This document shows, piece after piece, positions 2,101 to 61,760 of a stretch of 64,000 nucleotides of DNA. Location: positions 60,057,195 through 60,121,194 of the forward strand of contig CM074513.1 of assembly GCA_037379345.1 (NCBI GenBank). The letters run 5' to 3'. The position numbers were made by a program, and so were the translations under genes. Position 1 is the stretch's first letter. Each line of letters starts with the position of its first letter. The notes under the pieces were generated by a model. The model searched no databases and had not been told where the DNA came from. It saw only the letters and a list, made by a program, of their open reading frames with translations. Source of the DNA: Perna viridis (Eukaryota).

Positions 2101-3786
2101 ATTAATATGTACCTTTGTTTTATTTTTTTAGTTATGCTGCTCAATATTTGACCTCTTCTTTGGTTCTACGCAATACATTTCTATGACATCAGAGAATGAT
2201 AATTAATCAACTTAACGTAATACCATACTATAATGGAATAACTATTTTAGCTACGTACAAACATTAACATTCGTCCATCATTTTGAAATTCAAATTCAGT
2301 GTTAGTTTATAGTAACTGGTAATTGAGATGGGATCTTTTGTTATCCCCGTCATGTTTACAAATGAGGCCTGTAATAGATATGGATTTGTTTGTCATTACC
2401 TATATTGCGTTGTGACCCGAGAAAAAAAAACTTATCGCAAAATTACCCAGGGATCATCGAAACAAAAGACACGGTACATAAGAACAGTGTACACCAACAT
2501 TACTTTTCTCATCAAAGCTATGCGTACATAGTCATATATGATCTATATATACATGTATGATTTGTTAACCTCCGTAAAGATAGCATACATGTATATAATT
2601 ACTACGCAATTGAACAAGAAAGAAAAAAAAAAGAAAAAGACAGAAAGTAAAGCAAACTAAAGTTACAATGGTAACTACACGCGTACATACATTGTAAGAT
2701 GCTGTTAATTGTAGTCAGCGGTCTACACAATCATTACTTATCTCGTCAACGGTATGCATACATATTTATAGGAAATCGTTAATCATTTAAAGTGGAGATA
2801 AATGTAATTAAAAATCTAATCGCATAAAATGCGTTTGCAAAAGTATGAATTCCATGACAGGACGTTAAAAAGCCAAATAGTTTGTCTCTAAATTGCTCTA
2901 ATACCGCGGAAAAAAACTAACTTGATAAACATCTGACTGGGTAAGATCCAAATATTACATCAGGCAAATTATTGCATTAGCGCTAAAAATATGAGTGACT
3001 TGAACTTTCAAGAATTTCCTGTTGTGTATTTTTAGCATTACCAATTCTTATACAAGACTATAAATACATGTACGATGATGATATGTCTGTCGTGTAAATG
3101 ACTGTTATAGAGTAATGGTCCGATTCTACGTTCAGATATTTGACTCTCGTGTAGCCAATTTGATCTTTGTACTCTCCAAATATTTAATGGGTATCCTATA
3201 TTTAATGATATTCTGTTTTTTCACATCTCTATGTTTTTGGCATTTTATAACGTTCGGATTCCAGAGAACTTCTGTAAAACCCCGTCTAAATGGCTCTAAT
3301 AAAGCCATTTTAACAATGATGTATTGCCTGGTTTAAGAAATTGAACGTACGTGTTCGACACTTTTATCCATCTTTTATATTTCTGTAAGAGCATTTAGTA
3401 GTTTTTTCATGTAAATTTTGTGTTTGAATCAGCATTTCATTTAAGCTTATGAAACCAAATAATCTGTCACTGTTGGAGATGGGTTGTTAAGGTTATAAAA
3501 GCAGTATTAATATGATCGATTACTATTTCCCTGGTGTCTGGAGAATTCTTAGACTTTTAAGAAAATCAACCAATTATTTACACATTGGAATAAACGGTAG
3601 CATTGAACAAACGGCTTATCAGAGATATTTTTGATGACAAGACACGTAGATTTTTGTTCAGATTTTCAAGTATATTTTCAAATTTTGCGTTAATGTTCAT
3701 CATGACACATTGGTCATCTCGATATCTACCACAGGCGTGCTTGGTTCTGTTGTACTTCATATATCGACAGGGTATGTTTTGTCTGA

Positions 3787-4470
3787 AAGAGTAATCAAGG
3801 GAGTCAAGATTCTAGCGAAAATCAAAAGAATGTAATCCGGGGACAAAGTCCATACATGGAAAACAGACACACAAAACAAAGAACATAAAATAACAAAAAA
3901 ATATACATACAAAATAATAAAAGTAAATGAGCAACTCGGACTCCACTAAAAACCGGGAGCATGGACCAGGTGCACCGGTAGGGTAAGCGTCCTCTGCTTT
4001 TCTATAACACCCGCCGAGATCCACGAGTTCATGATGACGACCATAAAACCAATAGTGAAGATTTCAGTTATAGCAACATACTAGTAACCCTGTCCCAGAA
4101 GCTTAATTGTAAGAAGTCTAGCGCGGTACAATAAGTTTGCATAGTTAAGGTAAGCTCTGACAAAGTATGAGTTCTGATATGAATACCATACACAGGTACA
4201 GAAGGGATGTTGCCACAGATGAAAGAAAAGTTGACAATACGGAATAAAAAGTCATCGCGTTTGTCGTATAGTTTGGTCAACAGTTTTCCTTTTCCGTCGA
4301 TCTCTTTAGTGTAGGTCAAGATAAGAGGCTGATTTCACAGTGTCTGTAGTATCCATTATCTCAAATTGCGATATATAAAATCCTCGAAACTAGGATTGTT
4401 TAACGGTGATACGTCATCTATATATCGGAAACTGAGATCGAACGATCTGGTCGATTAACGATGTTCCTTC
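3787..4470 (-). mobile_element. Penelope-like retroelement fragment (family 1, copy A; internal deletion near 4018)
   Basis: FRYIDD at ~4412-4430, then KLLTKLYDKRDDF..IVNF.FICGNIPS and FYGRHHELVD. Shares the 3' end TTGATTACTCTT with the other copies. Confidence 0.85.
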
Positions 4471-7249: not shown

Positions 7250-7429
7250 AGAGTAATAAAGGGAACCAAGGTTATACCGAGCGGTAATCAAAAGAATGCA
7301 GTCCAGGGACAAAGACCAGACATGGAAAACAGATATACACAACAAAGAACATAAAGTAACTAAAATCATACATACAAAGTAACAAAAGCAATGAGCAACT
7401 TGGACTCCACCAAAAACTGGGAGCATGGA
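7250..7429 (-). mobile_element. Penelope-like family 1, 3'-terminal fragment (copy D), nested in the MITE
   Basis: Closely matches the reverse complement of 24535-24712 and is homologous to 22030-22210. Confidence 0.85.
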
Positions 7430-19874: not shown

Positions 19875-20876
19875 TATGGCAAGCCAAAATGGAGAAAAAT
19901 GAGTATTTTCTAATATTAAAAAATGATTTTATAATGTTACAAATTCATTTTCTAATATTACAAATTAGATTTCTTATATCACAAAACACTTTTTTAATAT
20001 TAAAAAATCACTTTTTAATATAAAAAATTCAATCGAATTTCTAATATTAAAAAACGATATTCTAATATTGGAAATTGATTTTCTAATATTGGAAAATGGG
20101 TTTGTTGTATTCAATTACGATTTTTTAATATTAGAAATGTGACTGATTTTACAATATTGCAAAGTGATTTTCTAATATTACAATTTCATTTTCTAATATT
20201 ACAAATTCAATTTGTAACATTACAAAATGTGCGAAGTTTTGTAATATTACTAAATCAGGAAATTGTAATATTAGAAAATGAATTTTTAGTATTACAAAAT
20301 GAATTTCTAATATTAAAAAATATTTTCTGATATTAAAAAAATGATTTTGTAATATTAAAAATAAGTGTTTTTAATATTAAAAAATGATTTTTCAATATTA
20401 CAAATTCATTTTCTAATATTACAAAATAGATTTCTAATATCACAAAACACTTATTTAATATTAAAAAATCTATTGAATTTCTAATATTAAAAAACGACTT
20501 TTTAATATCAGAAATTGATTTTCTAATATAAGAAAATGGATTTGTCGTATTCAATTATGATTTTTTAATATTAGAAAATCATTTTGTAATATTAAAAAAT
20601 ATGACTGATTTTGCAATATTTCGAAGTGATTTTCTAATATTACACATTCATTTTCTAATATTACAAATTAAATTTGTAATATTACAAAATGTGTGATATT
20701 TTATAATATTACTAAATCAGGAATTTGTAATATTAGAAAATTCATTTTTAATATTACAAAATGAATTTCTAATATTAAAAAATCTTTTCTAATATTAAAA
20801 AAATGATTTTGTAATATTAAAAATTCATTTTCTAATATTACAAAATATTGATTTTTGTCCACTTTGGCTTGCCATA
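19875..20876. mobile_element. IS3EU-like MITE (~1 kb) filled with AT-rich TTTCTAATATTACAAAA repeats
   Basis: TIRs TATGGCAAGCCAAAATGGA / TCCACTTTGGCTTGCCATA; 6-bp TSD TATTCC (19869-19874) / CATTCC (20877-20882) with one mismatch; internal ~460-bp duplication. Confidence 0.85.
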
Positions 20877-21429: not shown

Positions 21430-22210
21430 ATATACCAACGATCACTTTCAATTTCTCAGCGATATAGATGGCATATTATCTTTAAACATTCCTAGTTTCG
21501 GGGGTTTGATACATCGCATCTACCCAAAAGAACTTAAGATAAAGGATACCACAGACACCGTGAAATCAGCCTCATATCTTGACCTACACGTAGAGATCGA
21601 TGGTAAATGGAAACTATTGATCAAACTTTACGACAAACGTGATGATTTTTCATTCAAAATTGTCAACTTTCCATTCATCTCTGGCAACATTCCTTCAGCC
21701 TGCGTATTTAGTTTTCATATCACAACTCGTACGTTATGCCAGAGCTTCAGTAACTACGTAGACGTCTTGTATCGCGCCAGACTTCTTACAATTAGGCTTA
21801 TGGAATGGGGTTATGTTGCTACACGAATAAAGTCATCAGTACAGAAGTTTTATGGTCGTCATCATGAACTCGTGGATCGTTATGGTGTATCCATCTTCAC
21901 CATGAAAAATGATTTGTTCAACGTATCAAAGTTTTCCTTTCCTCTTTCGTCTACCCGGACTCTACTTTCTATGAGCAACTCGGTGAATGTTTCTAGAAAA
22001 GCAGAGGACCTTACCCTACCGGTGCACCTGGTCCATGCTCCCAGTTTTTAGTGGAGTCCGAGTTACTCATTTACTCTTGTAACTTTGCATGTATTATCTT
22101 AGTTACTTTATGTTCTTTGTTAGGTTTGTCTGTTTTCCGTGTCTGGTCTATGTTCCTGGATTAAATTCTTTTGATTTCAGTTAGAATCCTGGTTCTCTTG
22201 ATTACTCTCT
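21430..22210 (+). mobile_element. Penelope-like family 1, copy B (RT C-terminal half plus complete 3' end)
   Basis: IYPKELKIKDTTDTVKSASYLDL..KLYDKRDDFSFKIVNFPFISGNIPS..KFYGRHHELVDRY; degenerate YIDD; no GIY-YIG domain after the RT. Confidence 0.88.
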
Positions 22211-24510
22211 CAAGTGACGTTACAATATCAGCGAAAAGTTGTTTCTGTGAATTACGTTATATTTTAATTTTGAAATTATAATAATTTCTGGTACAAGATT
22301 ACTCGTTGATCAAACATCTTATGTTTTGAAAGTATACCAGAACTATTTGTTATAATATGTTAAACAATTGATCGAACCAATTGTACCATTATCATTTCAT
22401 TACATGCCATTAAAGACTTCGATATGTCTTCATGTGGGGTGTATAAAAATGACAAACTTAACAGATATGATTTTTTTTTTTAATGTTGCTTGCCAAAATA
22501 TTGCAATTAGTTGCTTTTCGTGTTTGACCTTCCAATTTTGTTATGTGTTCCAATTGATGCATGAGAAAGCCATGAATTATATATATCACACTGTTATAAG
22601 TGAATTACGTTACAGAGTCGGTCATTCCCGTTAAGCTAATTATGAACATTCCAATTGGATTTGAATGCACAATTGTTTTCTATGTACATTTGTATCACCT
22701 ATAAGATGTATGAATGTAAATAGGTTGCTAAATTGGCCTTCATCTTTTGTTAATTATGTTTCCAAAGAATAATAAAGATAGCTTGTTTTCAATTTCATTT
22801 TGTCTTATTATTTTTGTTATTAGATGTTATAAAATATATAGTATCTTAAAAAAGATAATAATTTTTGAACAAATATTTGTTTCGTGTTGTGAATATATTG
22901 TTTATCTATCGAATGATATCATTTGAAGCGCAGTTTTGAATAATTGTATGATGAGACTTTTATTGTTATTCAACATTGGTGTCCAGAAGTAACGTAATTC
23001 ACTACCAAAATACACTGGGCGTGTTAAAAATTTCGTACAGGACATAAATCAACCCAACAAGAGCTATCTTGGGTTTTCTTGCAATTCAAACTAACGTTTT
23101 ATTGAAATTAAAGCATTTGAGTTGTTTTCAGTGTTCAAAATGTCCGGCCGCTTTTCTGTTCCTATTGGGGAACTTAAACTGAATAATAATGATTATATTT
23201 AACTGTGTGTTATTCTACCGGTTTTTATCGACTCTTTTATTTGAGAAATCCTCAAATAACTTGTATTTGTTCTAGAAAATTCCATTCATATTTCATACCT
23301 GTAATCAATTTGTCCCGTTCTCTGATTGGCTGTCTTATCATCCATTCGATGCAGAAATGTGTTCATGTTTGTAGTGTCACTATGTACCTTGCAAATCATA
23401 TTTTCATTCCGTAAAAACAAATAATTGCCAGTTTTATATGGCTAATTTGTTTTGAATTTTAACATTGAAAATAAATTTTGAGCTATTTAGAAAGTGAGAA
23501 TCGTTTCGCTAGTTCGTACTGTCGTATTCTTTAGTAATTTTGACCTACAAATGGCACCAAACCTCTAACCAAAACCATGGTCAGTTTCCCCAACCCTTAC
23601 TCGTGTCAAACACTGAGAAAAATGTTCTTGTGTGACTTATAAATATTAAATGAATAATAAACATTAAATTGCTTCAGAACTCATTCAGTCGACTATCACA
23701 GATCTAACATACATAAATAATTGCTGACATTGGTTAGTCCCAAGAGGTATTCCTAAACTATAATGCCTTACATGCGTGTTCTGTCTATCAATAGTCGGAA
23801 CCTGATATGCATTTTTTGGTCTTTAAACCATGTGCTATCAGTGAAGCCAAAATTCGAGTAGTATGTATAATTCGAAGTCATTTTGTTTTCGTGCTACACA
23901 GAAAAACAGAAGTCGACATATTATTGAAAAAAAAAATGGGACTGTACCCTGGAGACGGACCGAAATATGGACAGTGGATAAAGTATCATCCCATGTGGCA
24001 TTATAAGAACTGTTTCTGTGTGGTACATTTGTAGCTAATCATTATTACCAAGGAGCTAAAATGTTCATTAAAGTCAGTTTTCTCTACAGAGGTCAAGTTT
24101 CTAGGAGTTTCATGCTAGTTTGTGGCTGTTGGTCAACCACTAGATAATTAGATAGTTCTGTTTGAAGGTGTGGAGTTCTCTGTAGTATTTACATAAAACA
24201 ATGAATCACAGATGGGTTATTGTTACAATTAATACAAGAACAAGGTTAAGTACATTAGAAACAAACTATTCCATCTGTTTCTGATATCTTAGATTGATAC
24301 ATGATTTATTAATAGTGTTGACGTAACTGGAAAGGTCACGATACAGAAAGGCATACAGCATGTTCAGTCTGAGGACGAATTATTTCTGTATCAGAACTCT
24401 CCATCGTTCGCTGAGTGATTTTCACGTCGGTCTATACATCCTATTAAAGCTGTAAATAAGTCAACATGATTTAAACTTTGGTGTAGTCTTTCTACTAAAC
24501 ATGATTTGAA

Positions 24511-24712
24511 CGCTTACCCTACCGGTGCACCTGGTCCATGCTCCCAGTTTTTAGTGGAGTCCGAGTTGCTCATTTGCTTTTGTTACTTTGTATGTATGAT
24601 TTTAGTTACTTTATGTTCTTTATTGTGTATGTCTGTTTTCCATGTCTGGTCTTTGTCCCTGGATTACATTCTTTTGATTACCGCTATAACATTGGTTCTC
24701 TTGATTACTCTT
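24511..24712 (+). mobile_element. Penelope-like family 1, 3'-terminal fragment (copy E)
   Basis: CGCTTACCCTACCGGTGCACCTGG...TTGATTACTCTT, inserted in the second unit of a 35-bp tandem dimer; TTGAAC is present at both junctions. Confidence 0.85.
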
Positions 24713-44978: not shown

Positions 44979-45495
44979 TTGATTGATTAATTGTTGGGGT
45001 TAAACGCCCGAGCAGCAATATTTCAGCTATATTCAGGCGATGAACATGAAAGGGATAAAATGAACATGAAATGATGATGAAATGAAAAAAAAGGGATGGG
45101 ACACAAGGACAATATGGTCGACAAATTTTGATTGGCACAAGAAAAAAAGGGAGGGATAGGTAGGGTCGGGCAATTTAGCCTCCTGTGGCGGAAAGGTTCC
45201 TACTCCTATCGAAATACCACGGCATGGTTCTTTAACGTGCGAGGAACGTGGCATCTTTCCAAACACGGTGCATCACTATGGTTTGCGGTCAGGTTTTCCG
45301 TGTTATAGCCTGACAACCCCAATATGTAACACGCCAGGGGTATCCCATTCCACCACCTGGGGCACACATCCCAGTTGCTCTGTGGGCAGAGCGCCCAGCC
45401 CCCGGCTAGGTTTCTGAGCACTATTTAGTCGCCTTTTACGACAAGCTTAGCGGTGCTGCAGGCCTATTCTTTTGACACCCGGACTTGCACAGGGT
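44979..45495 (-). mobile_element. Full-length SINE-like retroposon, copy 1 (non-tRNA structured head, GCACGTTAAAGAACC central block, I/Nimb-type tail)
   Basis: 12-13-bp TSD (T)GGCATGACTTGG at 44966-44978 and 45495-45507; (CAAT)n tail; homologous end to end with 61117-61653. Confidence 0.9.
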
Positions 45496-45840: not shown

Positions 45841-46371
45841 AAGAGTAATCAAGGAAACCAAGGTTATAGCGGTAATCATAAATCGGTTTTCATGGTTCAG
45901 ATGGATACACCATAACGATTCATTAGTTCATGATGACGACCATAAAACTTCTGTAGTGATGACTTTAATCTTGTAGCAACATAACCCTGTTCAGAAGCCT
46001 ATTTGTCAGACTTCTAGCATGATACAAAAAGTCTGCGTAGTTTCGGCAAGCTCTGGCATAACGTATGAGCTGTGATATGAACACTCCATACGCAGGTGCT
46101 GAAGGGATGTTGCCACAGATGAAAGGAAAGTTGACAGTTCTGAATGAAAAGTCATCACTTTTGTCGTAAAGTTCGGTCAGTAGTTTTCCTTTACCATCGA
46201 TTTCTAAGTATAGGTCAAGGTATGAGGCTGACTTCACAGTGTCTATAGTATCCTCTATCTAAAGTTCCTTGGGGTAGATGCGATGTATCAAATCCCGGAA
46301 ATTAGGGTTGTTTAAAGATAATACGTCATCTATATAACGGAAACTGAGATCAAAGGATCTAGCCAAACGAT
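45841..46371 (-). mobile_element. Penelope-like family 1, copy C (3' UTR partly deleted)
   Basis: FRYIDDV at ~46323-46342; KSASYLDLYLEIDGKGKLLTELYDK..PAYGVFISQLIRYARAC; ends TTGATTACTCTT. Confidence 0.88.
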
Positions 46372-53728: not shown

Positions 53729-54379
53729 TTATATAAGAATCCGGGTTTCTGATTGGTTGATAAGAAGTGTTTTTTTTTTACATATCCTTAAGATTTCGGT
53801 CATTTTTACAGCTGCTGGGGTATATATACATAAACCATATGCGCTTTTTCCCGTCCGTGCGAGACTCGTCAGAGTAGTCAAGGACGTTAAAAACCATTTT
53901 CCCCTCTTAACCGTGGTTTTTGCCAAAATTTACCCTCGCGAGCCACGTCTCGCCAAAACTCAACCGGAAGATCTTTTAATTGTTCGTTCAAAGTAACGGT
54001 TTTTTTTATTTGCGACCGGTAATTTTCGGAAATACCCCTCCATGCCGTGAGATATCTGTTCAGTAAACTTGACGTGTTAAAGTCGGAGACACTTTAAAAT
54101 TAAAATTTGGTATTTATTATCATTATTATTATTATTATTGAAATTTCTCTTTTTGACTATTAAACATATTAAATGTGGATAAAACACGTGACAAAACAAT
54201 AACCTACTACTAGTCTACTCAACAGCTAAGACCAGATACTAAAGATTCTACCAATACAACAATTACAGTGTAATATTATCAAACAAGAGATTAATGTCTG
54301 GTGAAATCTCTGATGTCTTTGTCAAATTTCTGCAATGATCAAGAGATACTCTCTTCATTAACTTCACGCACAGCTAACC

Positions 54380-57300
54380 AAAACTCTCACAATGAACTTA
54401 TACCACTATGATACCCTCACCATGAATCTTTACCAATATAACGCTCTCACCATGAATCTATACCACTATAACACCTTCACCATAAACACATACCACAATA
54501 ATACCCTAACCATAAACACAGACCACTATAATACCCTCACCATAAACATAGACCACTATAATACACTAAACATAAACACATACCACTATAATACACTCAC
54601 CATAAACACATACCACAATAATACACTCATCATAAACACAGACCACTATAATACCCCAACCATAAACACATACCACTATAATACACTTACCATAAACACA
54701 GCCCACTATAATACACTAACCATAAACACATACCACAATAATACACTCACCATAAACACATACCACAATAATACACTAACCATAAACACATACCACAATA
54801 ATAACCTAACCATAAACACAGACCACTATAATACACTCACCATAAACACAGACCACTATAATACCCTAAACATAAACACATACCACAATAATACACTCAT
54901 CATAAACACATACCACTATAATACCCCAACCATAAACACAGACCACTATAATACACTAACCATAAACACAAACCACTATAATACACTCATCATAAACACA
55001 TACCACAATAATACACTAACCATAAACACAGACCACTATAATACACTCATCATAAACACATACCACTATAATACCCTAACCATAAACACATACCACAATA
55101 ATACACTAACCATAAACACATACCACTATAATACACTCACCATAAACACATACCACTATAATACCCTAACCATAAACACATACCACAATAATACACTCAC
55201 CATAAACACATACCACTATAATACCCTAACATTAAACACAGACCACTATAATACACTCACCATAAACACAGACCACTATAATACCCCAACCACAAACACA
55301 GACCACAATAATACACTAACCATAAACACATACCACTATAATACACTCACCATAAACACATACTACTATAATACCCTAACCATAAACACATACCACAATA
55401 ATACACTCACCATAAACACATACCACTATAATACCCTAACATTAAACACAGACCACTATAATACACTCACCATAAACACAGACCACTATAATACCCCAAC
55501 CACAAACACAGACCACTATAATACCCTAACCATAAACACATACCACTATAATACCCCAACCATAAACACAGACCACTATAACACACTCACCATAAACACA
55601 TACCACAATAATACCCTAACCATAAACACAGACCACTATAATACACTCTCCATAAACACATACCACAATAATACACTAACCATAAACACAGACCACAATA
55701 ATACACTCACCATAAACACATACCACAATAATACACTCACCATAAACACAGACCACTATAATACACTCACCATAAACACAGACCACTATAATACCCTAAC
55801 CATAAACACATACCACAATAATACACTCATCATAAACACATACCACTATAATACCCCAACCATAAACACAGACCACTATAATACACTAACCATAAACACA
55901 TACCACTATAATACACTCATCATAAACACATACCACAATAATACATTAACCATAAACACAGACCACTATAATACACTCATCATAAACACATACCACTATA
56001 ATACCCTAACCATAAACACATACCACAATAATACACTAACCATAAACACATACCACCATAATACACTCACCATAAACACATACCACTATAATACCCTAAC
56101 CATAAACACAGACCACAATAATACACTCACCATAAACACATACCACTATAATACCCTAACATTAAACACAGACCACTATAATACACTCACCATAAACACA
56201 GACCACTATAATACCCCAACCACAAACACAGACCACTATAATACCCTAACCATAAACACATACCACTATAATACCCCAACCATAAACACAGACCACTATA
56301 ACACACTCACCATAAACACAGACCACTATAATACACTCACCATAAACACATACCACAATAATACCCCAACCATAAACACAGACCACTATAATACCCTCAC
56401 CATAAACACAGACCACAATAATACACTCACCATAAACACAGACCACTATAATACCCTTACCATAAACACATACCACAATAATACACTCATCATAAACACA
56501 GACCACTATAATACACTCACCATAAACACATACCACAATAATACCCTAACCATAAACACAGACCACTATAATACACTCACCATAAACACAGACCACTATA
56601 ATACCCTAACCATAAACACATACCACAATAATACACTCATCATAAACACAGACCACTATAATACACTCACCATAAACACATACCACAATAATACCCTAAC
56701 CATAAACACAGACCACTATAATACACTCACCATAAACACATACCACAATAATATACTAACCATAAACACAGACCACAATAATACACTCACCATAAACACA
56801 TACCACAATAATACACTCACCATAAACACAGACCACTATAATACACTCACCATAAACACATACCACAATAATACACTAACCATAAACACAGACCACTATA
56901 ATACACTCACCATAAACACATACCACAATAATACACTAACCATAAACACAGACCACTATAATACACTCACCATAAACACATACCACAATAATATACTAAC
57001 CATAAACACAGACCACAATAATACACTCACCATAAACACATACCACAATAATACACTCACCATAAACACAGACCACTATAATACACTCACCATAAACACA
57101 TACCACAATAATACACTAACCATAAACACAGACCACTATAATACACTCACCATAAACACATACCACAATAATACACTAACCATAAACACAGACCACTATA
57201 ATACACTCACCATAAACACAGACCACTACAACATTCTCACCATAAACCTTTAGCACTACAACATTCTCACCATGAACCTATACCACTAAACATTCTCACC

Positions 57301-57950
57301 ATGAGCCTTTATTGCTGTAATACCCTCCCCATAAACGTATACCACTATAATACTCTCATCATAAACATATACATGTACCACTTTGGTACGCTCACCATAA
57401 ACCTATACCATTATAACACTCCCACCATAAGCACATACCGCTAGTCTATACATGTATCACTCTCACCATGAACACATACCACTATAGTACTCTTATCATA
57501 AACTGATTCCACTATAATACTCTCACTATAAACCTTTACCACTATAATACTCTCACTATAAACCTTTACCACTATAATGCTCTCACCATATACATATACC
57601 ACTATAATACTCTCACCATATACATATACTACTATAATACTCTCACCATAAACATATACCACTGTAATACTCTCACCATCAACATATACCACTATATTAC
57701 TCTCACCATATACATATACCACTATAATACTATCACCATAAACATATAGTTCTACTCTCACCATAAACATATACCACTATAATACTCTCACCATAAACAC
57801 AAACCACTGTAATACTCTCACCATAAACATATACCACTATAATACTCTCACCATAAACACAGACCACTATAATACTCTCACCATTAACACAAAGCACTGT
57901 AATACTCTCGCCATATACATATACCACTATAATAGTCTCACTATAATCCT
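54380..57950. repeat. 30-bp minisatellite (~118 units), decaying rightwards to ~58750
   Basis: Unit CATAAACACAKACCACWATAATACMCTMAC, in unbroken 30-bp register from ~54390 to 57300. Confidence 0.97.
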
Positions 57951-60118: not shown

Positions 60119-61760
60119 CCCCTTATAAGTCCTATATACAGTTATACTAAAGATAAACAGACCCTTATAAAGTCCTATATACAGTTATACTAAAGATAAA
60201 CAGACCCTTACAAAGTCCTATATACAGTTATACTAAAGATAAACAGACCCTTATAAAGTCCTATATACAGTTATACTAAAGATAAACAGCCTCTTATAAA
60301 GTCCTATATACAGTTATACTAAAGATAAACAGACCCTTACAAAGTCCTATATACAGTTATACTAAAGATAAACAGACCCTTATAAAGTCCTATATACAGT
60401 TATACTAAAGATAAACAGACCCTTACAAAGTCCTATATACAGTTATACTAAAGATAAACAGACCCTTACAAAGTCCTATATACAGTTATACTAAAGATAA
60501 ACAGACCCTTACAAAGTCCTATATACAGTTATACTAAAGATAAACAGACCCTTACAAAGTCCTATATACAGTTATACTAAAGATAAACAGACCCTTACAA
60601 AGTCCTATATACAGTTATACTAAAGATAAACAGACCCTTACAAAGTCCTATATACAGTTATACTAAAGATAAACAGACCCTTACAAAGTCCTATATACAG
60701 TTATACTAAAGATAGACAGACCCTTACAAAGTCCTATATACAGTTATACTAAAGATAGACAGACCCTTACAAAGTCCTATATACAGTTATACTAAAGATA
60801 AACAGACCCTTACAAAGTCCTATATACAGTTATACTAAAGATAAACAGACCCTTATAAAGTCCTATATACAGTTATACTAAAGATAAACAGACCCTTATA
60901 AAGTCCTATATACAGTTATACTAAAGATAAACAGACCCTTACAAAGTCCTATATACAGTTATACTAAAGATAAACAGCCTCTTATAGAGTCCTGTATACA
61001 ATTATACTGAAGATAAACAGACCCTTATAGAGTCCTGCATGCAGTTATATGAAAGATAAATGACCCCTTTTACCGTCCTATATACAGTTAGATTGAATCC
61101 TATTTGAACCACACTTACCCACGTGCAGGTCCGGTGTTAAAAGAATATGCCTGCAGCAGCGCTAAGCTCGTCGTAAAAGGCGACTAAATAGTGCTCAGAA
61201 CCCTAGCCGGGGGCTAGGGCGCTTTGCCCACAGAGCAACTGGGATGTGTGCCCCAGGTGGTAGAATGGGGTACCCCTGGCGTGTTACATGCTGGGGTTGT
61301 CAGGCTATAATACGGAAAACCTGACCACAAACCATAGTGGTGCACCGTGTTGGGAAAGATGCCACGTTCCTCGCACGTTAAAGAACCCTACTGTGGTATT
61401 CTCCCGGAGTAGGAACCATAGGGCTCCGCCACAGGAGGCTAAATTGCCCGACCCTACCCACCTCTCCCGATTTCCAGTGGCAATCAAATTTCTCGACCCC
61501 ATTGTCCTTGTGTCCCATCCCTTTTTCATTTCATCATCATTTCATGTTCATTTTTTCATCAATTTCATGTTCATCGTCTGAATATAGCTGAAATATTGCT
61601 GCTCGGACGTTAAACCCCAACAAACAAACAAACAAACAAACAAAGAAACAAACTTTCGTATTTGACCCCTTATAAAGTCCTATATACAGTTACTAGTATA
61701 CTAAAGATAAAGGTCCCTTATAAAGTCCTATATACAATTAGATTGAACCCAATATGACCG
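60119..61760. repeat. 43-bp minisatellite (~22 homogeneous units), interrupted near its right end by SINE copy 2
   Basis: Unit AAAGTCCTATATACAGTTATACTAAAGATAAACAGACCCTTAY; resumes at ~61665. Confidence 0.95.
61117..61653 (+). mobile_element. Full-length SINE-like retroposon, copy 2
   Basis: Starts ACCCACGTGCAGGTCCGG at the same 5' position as copy 1 and ends GACGTTAAACCCCAA(CAAA)n. No clean TSD. Confidence 0.9.

Follow-up and report, generated by a model that had tools for sequence, protein, structure and literature searches.

A pseudoknotted RNA module predicted in the head of a Perna viridis LP-type SINE and in the 3' UTRs of RNA viruses: a putative exonuclease-resistant RNA

Results

The SINE and its two copies in the window

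The window analysed here, a stretch of 64,000 nucleotides of Perna viridis contig CM074513.1, contains two copies of a SINE of about 520 nt (Table 1), which is non-coding, its longest ATG open reading frame being 97 aa. An alignment of both window copies gave 89% column identity, in agreement with the original prediction, which had placed two diverged copies at 61117 (plus strand) and 45495 (minus strand). It had also had them begin at the same ACCC, and this did not hold, as the ACCC of one copy is shifted by one base against that of the other and the A of copy 2 is the last base of its perfect 13-nt TSD. Copy 1 is bounded by a TSD as claimed, but an imperfect one (9/11), and it is the TSD of copy 2 that is clean.

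Table 1. Coordinates of the SINE copies and of the features of copy 1 within the window.
Feature	Position	Strand	Details and evidence
SINE copy 1: head, body, tail with AAAC repeats	61117..61644	+	blastn coverage; non-coding
LP-SINE head of copy 1	61118..61195	+	predicted H-type pseudoknot, then stem-internal loop-hairpin; covariation
Pseudoknot stem S1 (predicted)	61120..61134	+	61120-23 with 61132-34; encloses unpaired U 61124 and 5' strand of S2; damaged in copy 1
Pseudoknot stem S2 (predicted), 7 bp	61125..61154	+	61125-31 with 61148-54; A-rich loop ends in conserved AGAATA (61142-47)
Stem P3 (predicted)	61158..61195	+	61158-64 with 61189-95; sequence and register variable
Hairpin P4 (predicted), near-invariant	61170..61187	+	GTCG / 7-nt loop / CGAC, then TAA; motif counts, comparative alignment
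A-box-like 11-mer near +140, without B box	61258..61268	+	exact match in 70/88 full-length copies
T-runs (T5, T6) before tail	61521..61558	+	potential Pol III terminators
Imperfect TSD of copy 1, 5' copy	61106..61116	+	9/11 match to 61645-61655
Imperfect TSD of copy 1, 3' copy	61645..61655	+	9/11; overlaps A/C-rich tail
SINE copy 2	44979..45494	-	head at 45413-45494; perfect 13-nt TSD 45507-45495 / 44978-44966

The family is abundant. The 15-nt hairpin of the repeat has at least 9,128 exact matches in the genome, against 1 for a reversed control, and the window contains 2 occurrences of the hairpin motif against 0.04 expected. In a blastn search with 61117..61644, 500 nt or more were covered in most of the loci fetched, at 80-97% identity, and the hairpin matches sampled across the genome (30 of 134, 30 of 181, 6 further odd matches, and a listing of 66) belonged throughout to a single SINE family. 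The tails are AAAC/AATC repeats, and of 73 full-length copies that have a tail, 56 show a TSD of at least 9 nt. A short block of the body (61374-61388) may be the core of a Meta-type conserved SINE domain, and the tail presumably resembles those of Nimb-type SINEs. No partner LINE was found in the same genome, with no long upstream frame in the 30 examined of 48 tail variants. Four contig-only sequencing runs, guessed to be RNA, contain the SINE, and 17-30 contigs per run extend into the upstream flank, although contigs cannot show starts.

Copy 1 sits inside a degenerate tandem repeat of about 48 bp (60900-61100 and 61660-61750), and SINE copies are often clustered, nested or mutually inverted neighbours (L002/L003, L011, L045, L055, L089). 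Elsewhere in the window there are a long 30-bp tandem array with strong strand skew (54260-57700; about 106 overlapping windows, 82-85% identity), a region of short inverted repeats (19900-20850) and a second dispersed repeat family (3780-4300, 7280-7390, 21460-22210, 24510-24710, 45880-46335).

Relationship to published LP-SINEs

The head had been regarded as undescribed, but it is the published LP-SINE head (PMC4758252). Matetovici et al. 2016 described LP-SINEs with a head of about 70 bp common to the 5' ends of Nimb-17_LMi, I-3_DR and RTE-9_CPB, that is, on two Nimb LINEs and one RTE LINE, which bears out the link to LINE 5' UTRs in the original prediction; a putative promoter was proposed, not shown, and in oyster SINEs the LP head had replaced a tRNA head (PMC4758252). 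Pr77 is named there as an analogy, and the parts of that paper drawn on here give neither a structure nor viral copies. Compared by eye with the scallop 'Nimb-17 homology' block of its supplementary Fig. S2, the window head has the same layout, with the S2 strands pairing 7/7, and the 17-nt hairpin motif is exact in 3 of the 16 rows of the block; homology to LINE 5' ends is taken from the label of that block and the wording of the paper, not from LINE sequences. A 5' domain homologous (by eye) to Nimb-17, variable TSDs, short tandem repeats at the 3' end and the lack of coding capacity all place the SINE as an added member of the LP-SINE group, with a head sequence that was already known.

The RNA fold of the head and its sharing with viruses are apparently new. 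Within the full-text literature searched, a body outside which lie subscription journals, Repbase, Dfam and the contents of figures, the motif string occurred in no paper and the term 'LP-SINE' was found only in PMC4758252, while matching by title or abstract start (again with subscription journals, Repbase and Dfam outside) returned nothing for the fold. The main text of a 2024 survey of bivalve SINEs (PMC11481361) contains neither the LP-SINE term nor ribozymes. No known Rfam family matches the head: there was no match at gathering level in the window, one weak microRNA match over the tail (E 1.1) when the element was searched at E<=10, and none at E<=1 in 10 homologous loci.

A tRNA, 5S or 7SL head was considered and rejected: ARAGORN found no tRNA, Rfam gave no match, an exact B box occurred in none of the 88 full-length SINE copies, and potential Pol III terminators lie inside the element. 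The claim that tRNA A and B boxes are missing was right as to the tRNA and the B box, but 70 of the 88 copies carry the A-box-like 11-mer near +140, a possible remnant of a former tRNA head, which lies too far inside to be placed to start a transcript at +1. Runs of T>=4 occur inside 85 of the 88 copies and runs of T>=5, upstream of the tail, inside 78. Since T runs of five or more stop Pol III, these, together with the absence of the B box, disfavour a Pol III origin.

The 5' boundary

An intact 5' end was present in 88 of 97 non-redundant SINE copies, and in 59 of 68 when loci were picked by the hairpin alone. Among TSD-delimited copies 36 of 56 begin at one position (30 of these with G) and 49 of 56 within 1 nt of it; the precise 5' end claimed from the two window copies is borne out. 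The family start is G-N-CCCGTG, with N mostly C, and the boundary is sharp, 1-2 nt upstream of the first pseudoknot stem. Counts in four SINE families each gave a purine as the first base, specific to the family: G in 64/88 copies with an intact 5' end in the present family, and A in 19/29, G in 8/9 and G in 6/6 in the others. The A-starting family shows no excess of G one base earlier (8/29), a mild point against a capped template.

Predicted fold of the head and its covariation

In the predicted fold of the head, the 3-5 bp of S1 are followed by a single unpaired U and the 7 bp of S2; next come an A-rich loop with AGAATA at its end, stem P3, an internal loop, and hairpin P4, whose loop has 7 nt. 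Much of this had been foreseen: the helix TGCAGGT/GCCTGCA, given as 61124-30/61149-55, and the hairpin followed by TAA (61170-87) were confirmed. The 5' ACC(C) had been paired with a loop, and a pseudoknot stem is indeed predicted there, but the family pairing is CCCG/CGGG, and the first stem of copy 1, with one substitution and one deletion, has about 2 pairs left. The AGCAC stem said to be intact in copy 1 is found literally in copy 2, the corresponding stem of copy 1 being 61158-64/61189-95.

Pattern scans for homologues gave at least 122 metagenome stretches and 9 viral stretches. Covariation was assessed on 19 compact non-viral heads, chosen from the pattern-scan matches and the P. viridis genome with long-loop and badly decayed heads left out, and aligned by MAFFT regardless of structure, i.e., in an alignment not fitted to the fold. 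Across these heads the H-type pseudoknot covaries. Overall pairing was 88.4% compared with 80.6 +/- 1.2 in shuffles, and two-sided changes occupied 23 cells compared with 6.8; neither value was reached in any of 500 shuffles, counts which are no P values as the representative heads are mutually related. Slid-register controls were 29-49% paired. S1 was 78.9% paired, with two-sided changes at 2 of 4 pairs, and S2 87.1%, with two-sided changes at 6 of 7. The covariance model R1 match to the head of copy 1 spans 61118-61199 at 67 bits, and the head of copy 2 scores 75.7 bits, as expected since relatives built the model.

Support for P3 was weaker than for S2: among 24 representatives its best-stem score was 279, compared with 245 +/- 12 in permutations (89 of 20000 as high). 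P4 shows no covariation, and its invariance is partly built in, as homologues were collected by a P4 pattern. When the helices were anchored automatically, the anchors were wrong in several families and 87 of 238 hits received none, but still 122 of 175 were paired against 92.5 expected, with 0 of 20000 as high. Folding of three single copies without pseudoknots was only modestly better than for shuffles (z -2.2, +0.1 and -1.2); as single-sequence folding is uninformative for a pseudoknot, the support for the fold is comparative. The loop inside the pseudoknot contains spacers of 130-148 nt in 7 copies and of 30-85 nt in 13; in these, 5.5-5.7 of the 7 pairs of S2 are still formed. Long insertions of low complexity interrupt the pseudoknot loop in two SINE families, in which both halves of the head are still present (L138, L156, L171, L174, L190, L214; and L104, L108, L125, L195). 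On one metagenome contig (L133:1370-1519) two diverged heads follow one another at a distance of 74 nt, an arrangement like that of the tandem pair described below for virus contig L246. The 5' arm and loop of P4 (61170-61180) are presumed to resemble the 3' strand of the decoding site of small-subunit rRNA, which may be chance; the resemblance, if real, may favour a ribosome- or factor-related role.

Copies of the head in viruses

The covariance model, built from the 19 non-viral heads only, was used to score the 100 viral loci listed, all of them pattern-matched. Among these, seven viral contigs scored 38-68 bits (E 4e-13 to 3e-6) and the other 93 no more than 25 bits; relaxed patterns returned the same 7 contigs and no further viral variants. 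Six of the seven (1.1-6.9 kb) are RNA viruses, five of them distinct: L461, L467 and L471 encode RdRP domains; L265 and L470 encode a Peptidase A21 capsid and carry the same copy of the motif in two separate contigs; and L246 encodes an S-domain capsid and a long RdRP-like ORF, whose nearest Atlas clusters are viral RdRPs, a match that is weak by the tool's own scale. PDB sequence searches with two viral ORFs gave no match. The remaining contig belongs to a DNA virus (212 kb), and here the motif lies between two genes of the same strand.

All six RNA-virus contigs carry the motif on the sense strand and in the 3' UTR, with starts 6, 11, 11, 24, 74 and 101 nt past the last stop codon, and 27-119 nt separate its end from the end of the contig. 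None of them ends in poly(A), with 0-5 A in the last 12 nt. Among the six distinct heads from viruses, five from RNA viruses and one from the DNA virus, no two share an S2 sequence, yet 41 of 42 pairs are kept, a value reached by 1 of 720 permutations, the true pairing itself, and S1 has 3-5 contiguous pairs in 6/6. A second, cut-off copy at the end of L246 shows a compensatory change in S2, from A-U to G-C. The first base is not conserved, being T, C, T, A, C and A in the six viruses. Six-mers complementary to the loop occur within the first 200 nt of one of the six RNA-virus contigs, which may lack their 5' ends. That the viral copies are products of chimeric assembly is unlikely, given six different sequences at one position and in one orientation.

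Loose gapped patterns gave mostly chance matches in the viral collection, among the matches listed, and in the prokaryotic one. In the latter, 5 genuine heads were recognised among 100 scored of 112 loci (L378, L406, L400, L437, L439), three of which had helped to build the model; these heads in prokaryotic genome bins probably represent contaminating eukaryotic (host) DNA. The phage collection contained no match to the head.

Discussion

This study followed up a short repeat head in the P. viridis genome. The LP-SINE head, published as a putative DNA promoter, appears from comparative evidence to be a conserved RNA structure that is kept also in the 3' UTRs of RNA viruses. As no DNA stage occurs in RNA viruses, promoter activity in DNA cannot be all that the head does, and whatever the two settings have in common would lie at the RNA level. 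The published hypothesis of an internal promoter acting in DNA only, under which the viral copies would be captured passengers or assembly chimeras and the helices incidental, is therefore considered very improbable, even though it fits the position at +1, the purine found there, the copy between two genes of the 212-kb DNA-virus contig, and the tRNA head having been replaced in oyster SINEs (PMC4758252). It sits poorly with six different S2 sequences in six viruses that keep 41 of 42 pairs, with the same position and strand in all the RNA viruses, with one viral copy recurring in two separate contigs (L265, L470), with the compensatory change between the tandem copies of L246, and with the covariation among non-viral heads.

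The explanation favoured here, tentatively, is that the LP-type head is a putative exonuclease-resistant RNA (xrRNA) that would set the element's 5' end. Read-through from host Pol II units would transcribe the SINE copies, an exonuclease working 5'-to-3' (Xrn1/Xrn2) would trim the read-through RNA and stall at the base of the pseudoknot, and the trimmed, uncapped RNA would then be copied via its tail by the reverse transcriptase of a LINE. In the viruses, a 3' fragment protected by this fold would remain, of 89-183 nt counted to the contig end. An exonuclease block fits the retroelement and the viral setting with a single function, and an end-defining module independent of a promoter would explain the swapping of heads among unrelated LINE clades and SINE bodies. 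With slightly more reserve still, it may be suggested that the head represents a new class of xrRNA common to animal retroelements and unrelated RNA viruses, in which case LINEs and SINEs would need no promoter or ribozyme of their own, the host decay enzymes carving their 5' ends from read-through transcripts.

Described xrRNAs have a pseudoknot, a position in viral 3' UTRs and possibly tandem copies (PMC8374639, PMC11702639, PMC13556198), and for one xrRNA of class 3 the arrest of Xrn1 is placed at the 5' base of the first stem (PMC11702639, PMC8374639). The LP head has at least one predicted pseudoknot and, in 6/6 RNA-virus contigs, a sense-strand position in the 3' UTR; it does not match the described secondary structures (class 1, 2, 3, coremin), having no Rfam match and a different layout as compared by description. 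Several other observations count against the xrRNA reading. A family-specific purine is the first base in four SINE families, as polymerase initiation gives, and the viral fragments predicted would be short. A loop whose sequence hardly varies is more usual in factor-binding sites than in the majority of xrRNAs. A plain H-type pseudoknot threads no 5' end through a ring, so that the hairpin would have to dock back, and the long loop insertions could break such a ring.

The purine start, the invariant hairpin and the lack of an inferable ring are better explained by a factor-binding RNA combined with a promoter than by an xrRNA. Here the fold would bind a conserved host factor, either an initiation factor or the ribosome, and the same 75 bases would also contain an internal Pol II promoter that gives the 5' end; placed in viral 3' UTRs and LINE 5' UTRs, the head would enhance cap-independent translation, and it would bring SINE RNA to ribosomes making LINE proteins. 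This is a possible though doubtful explanation. It draws on the purine in four SINE families, on a hairpin loop near-invariant across retroelements and viruses, and on the RNA-virus contigs without poly(A), in which the motif stops 27-119 nt short of the contig end, where the 3' CITEs of tombus-like viruses lie (PMC6471432); a double role as promoter and RNA has a precedent in Pr77 (PMC3383444), and a promoter role has been proposed for the LP head itself (PMC4758252). It requires two functions where one would do, however, and the A-starting family has no copied-cap G, spacing within the head changes too much for promoter elements at fixed distances, and loop-complementary sites were found in the first 200 nt of only 1 of the 6 contigs, even if these may lack 5' ends.

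The original prediction was of an undescribed catalytic or processing RNA defining the 5' end. The RNA-virus copies support the processing RNA, but a ribozyme is not the likeliest form of it: a new self-cleaving class, cutting just 5' of the head and freeing the element from host read-through transcripts, is judged unlikely. It would agree with the sharp 5' boundary and the conserved unpaired bases, with the precedents of L1Tc (PMC3383444) and the twister variants of Schistosoma (PMC8501958), and with the occurrence of ribozymes in the UTRs of linear RNA viruses, toti- and tombus-like ones included (PMC13725137). Those viral ribozymes, however, are described as preceding ORFs or coming as pairs (PMC13725137), whereas the present viral motif stands behind the last stop codon, so that cleavage there would likely cost the genome its 3' end. 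Nor is a base conserved at the putative cleavage site (G or A in the SINE families; T/C/T/A/C/A in the six viruses), and Rfam gave no match in the window or in the 10 homologous loci.

As the original prediction had it, the head fits none of HDV, hammerhead, twister or pistol, with no Rfam match and a different layout of the fold. Hammerhead, twister and pistol were rejected on the Rfam searches (E<=10 for the element, E<=1 for the 10 loci) and, for the hammerhead, on the absence of its core motif from all 88 SINE copies (0/88); a loose twister pattern was uninformative, with 68 of 88 copies matching anywhere. An HDV-like ribozyme was rejected because the covarying helices form an H-type pseudoknot followed by a separate stem-loop, not a nested double pseudoknot whose last strand pairs back to the strand after P1, and because no base at the cut site is conserved. 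The strand order of the head fits neither the HDV nor the pistol topology.

Should the xrRNA reading be true, it would add a third way of defining the 5' end of a non-LTR element, and a cellular xrRNA present at thousands of copies per genome; cellular xrRNAs are treated as not yet found in a 2021 review (PMC8374639). Any outcome at the RNA level, whether xrRNA, translation enhancer or ribozyme, would mean an RNA class that is absent from Rfam and common to retroelements and viruses, and the puzzle of LP-SINE and LINE 5' ends, and of the swapping of a 70-nt module between LINE clades, becomes approachable on a 75-nt RNA.

Comparison with known systems

The head has points in common with several known RNA modules and departs from each of them. 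Like the xrRNAs (flavivirus classes 1-2, class 3 of Tombusviridae and Solemoviridae, coremin) it has a predicted pseudoknot, an early position in the 3' UTR, tandem occurrence and a boundary at the base of the first stem, but it has no three-way junction, no class 3 stack of P1, internal loop and P2, and no coremin layout; it possesses an extra, invariant downstream hairpin, and is found mainly in animal retroelements. With the 3' CITEs (PTE, BTE and others) of tombus-like viruses it shares a place in the 3' UTR of non-polyadenylated RNA viruses and a conserved loop, but it has no Rfam match and, in contigs that may be incomplete, no consistent 5'-3' complementarity, and occurs also at the 5' end of non-coding SINEs; to our knowledge its fold differs from 3' CITE folds. 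Pr77/L1TcRz and the other 5' ribozymes of non-LTR elements (HDV-like in L1Tc, R2 and RTE; twister variants in Schistosoma) are likewise pseudoknotted modules of about 75 nt at the extreme 5' end, common to unrelated elements, but the LP head is without the nested double pseudoknot of HDV and a conserved first base, and is present in viral 3' UTRs. The closest relatives are the LP-SINEs, which have the same head, TSDs, short tandem-repeat tails and mollusc-type distribution, and differ in length, at 255-256 nt in three listed families compared with about 520 nt in the P. viridis SINE (PMC4758252).
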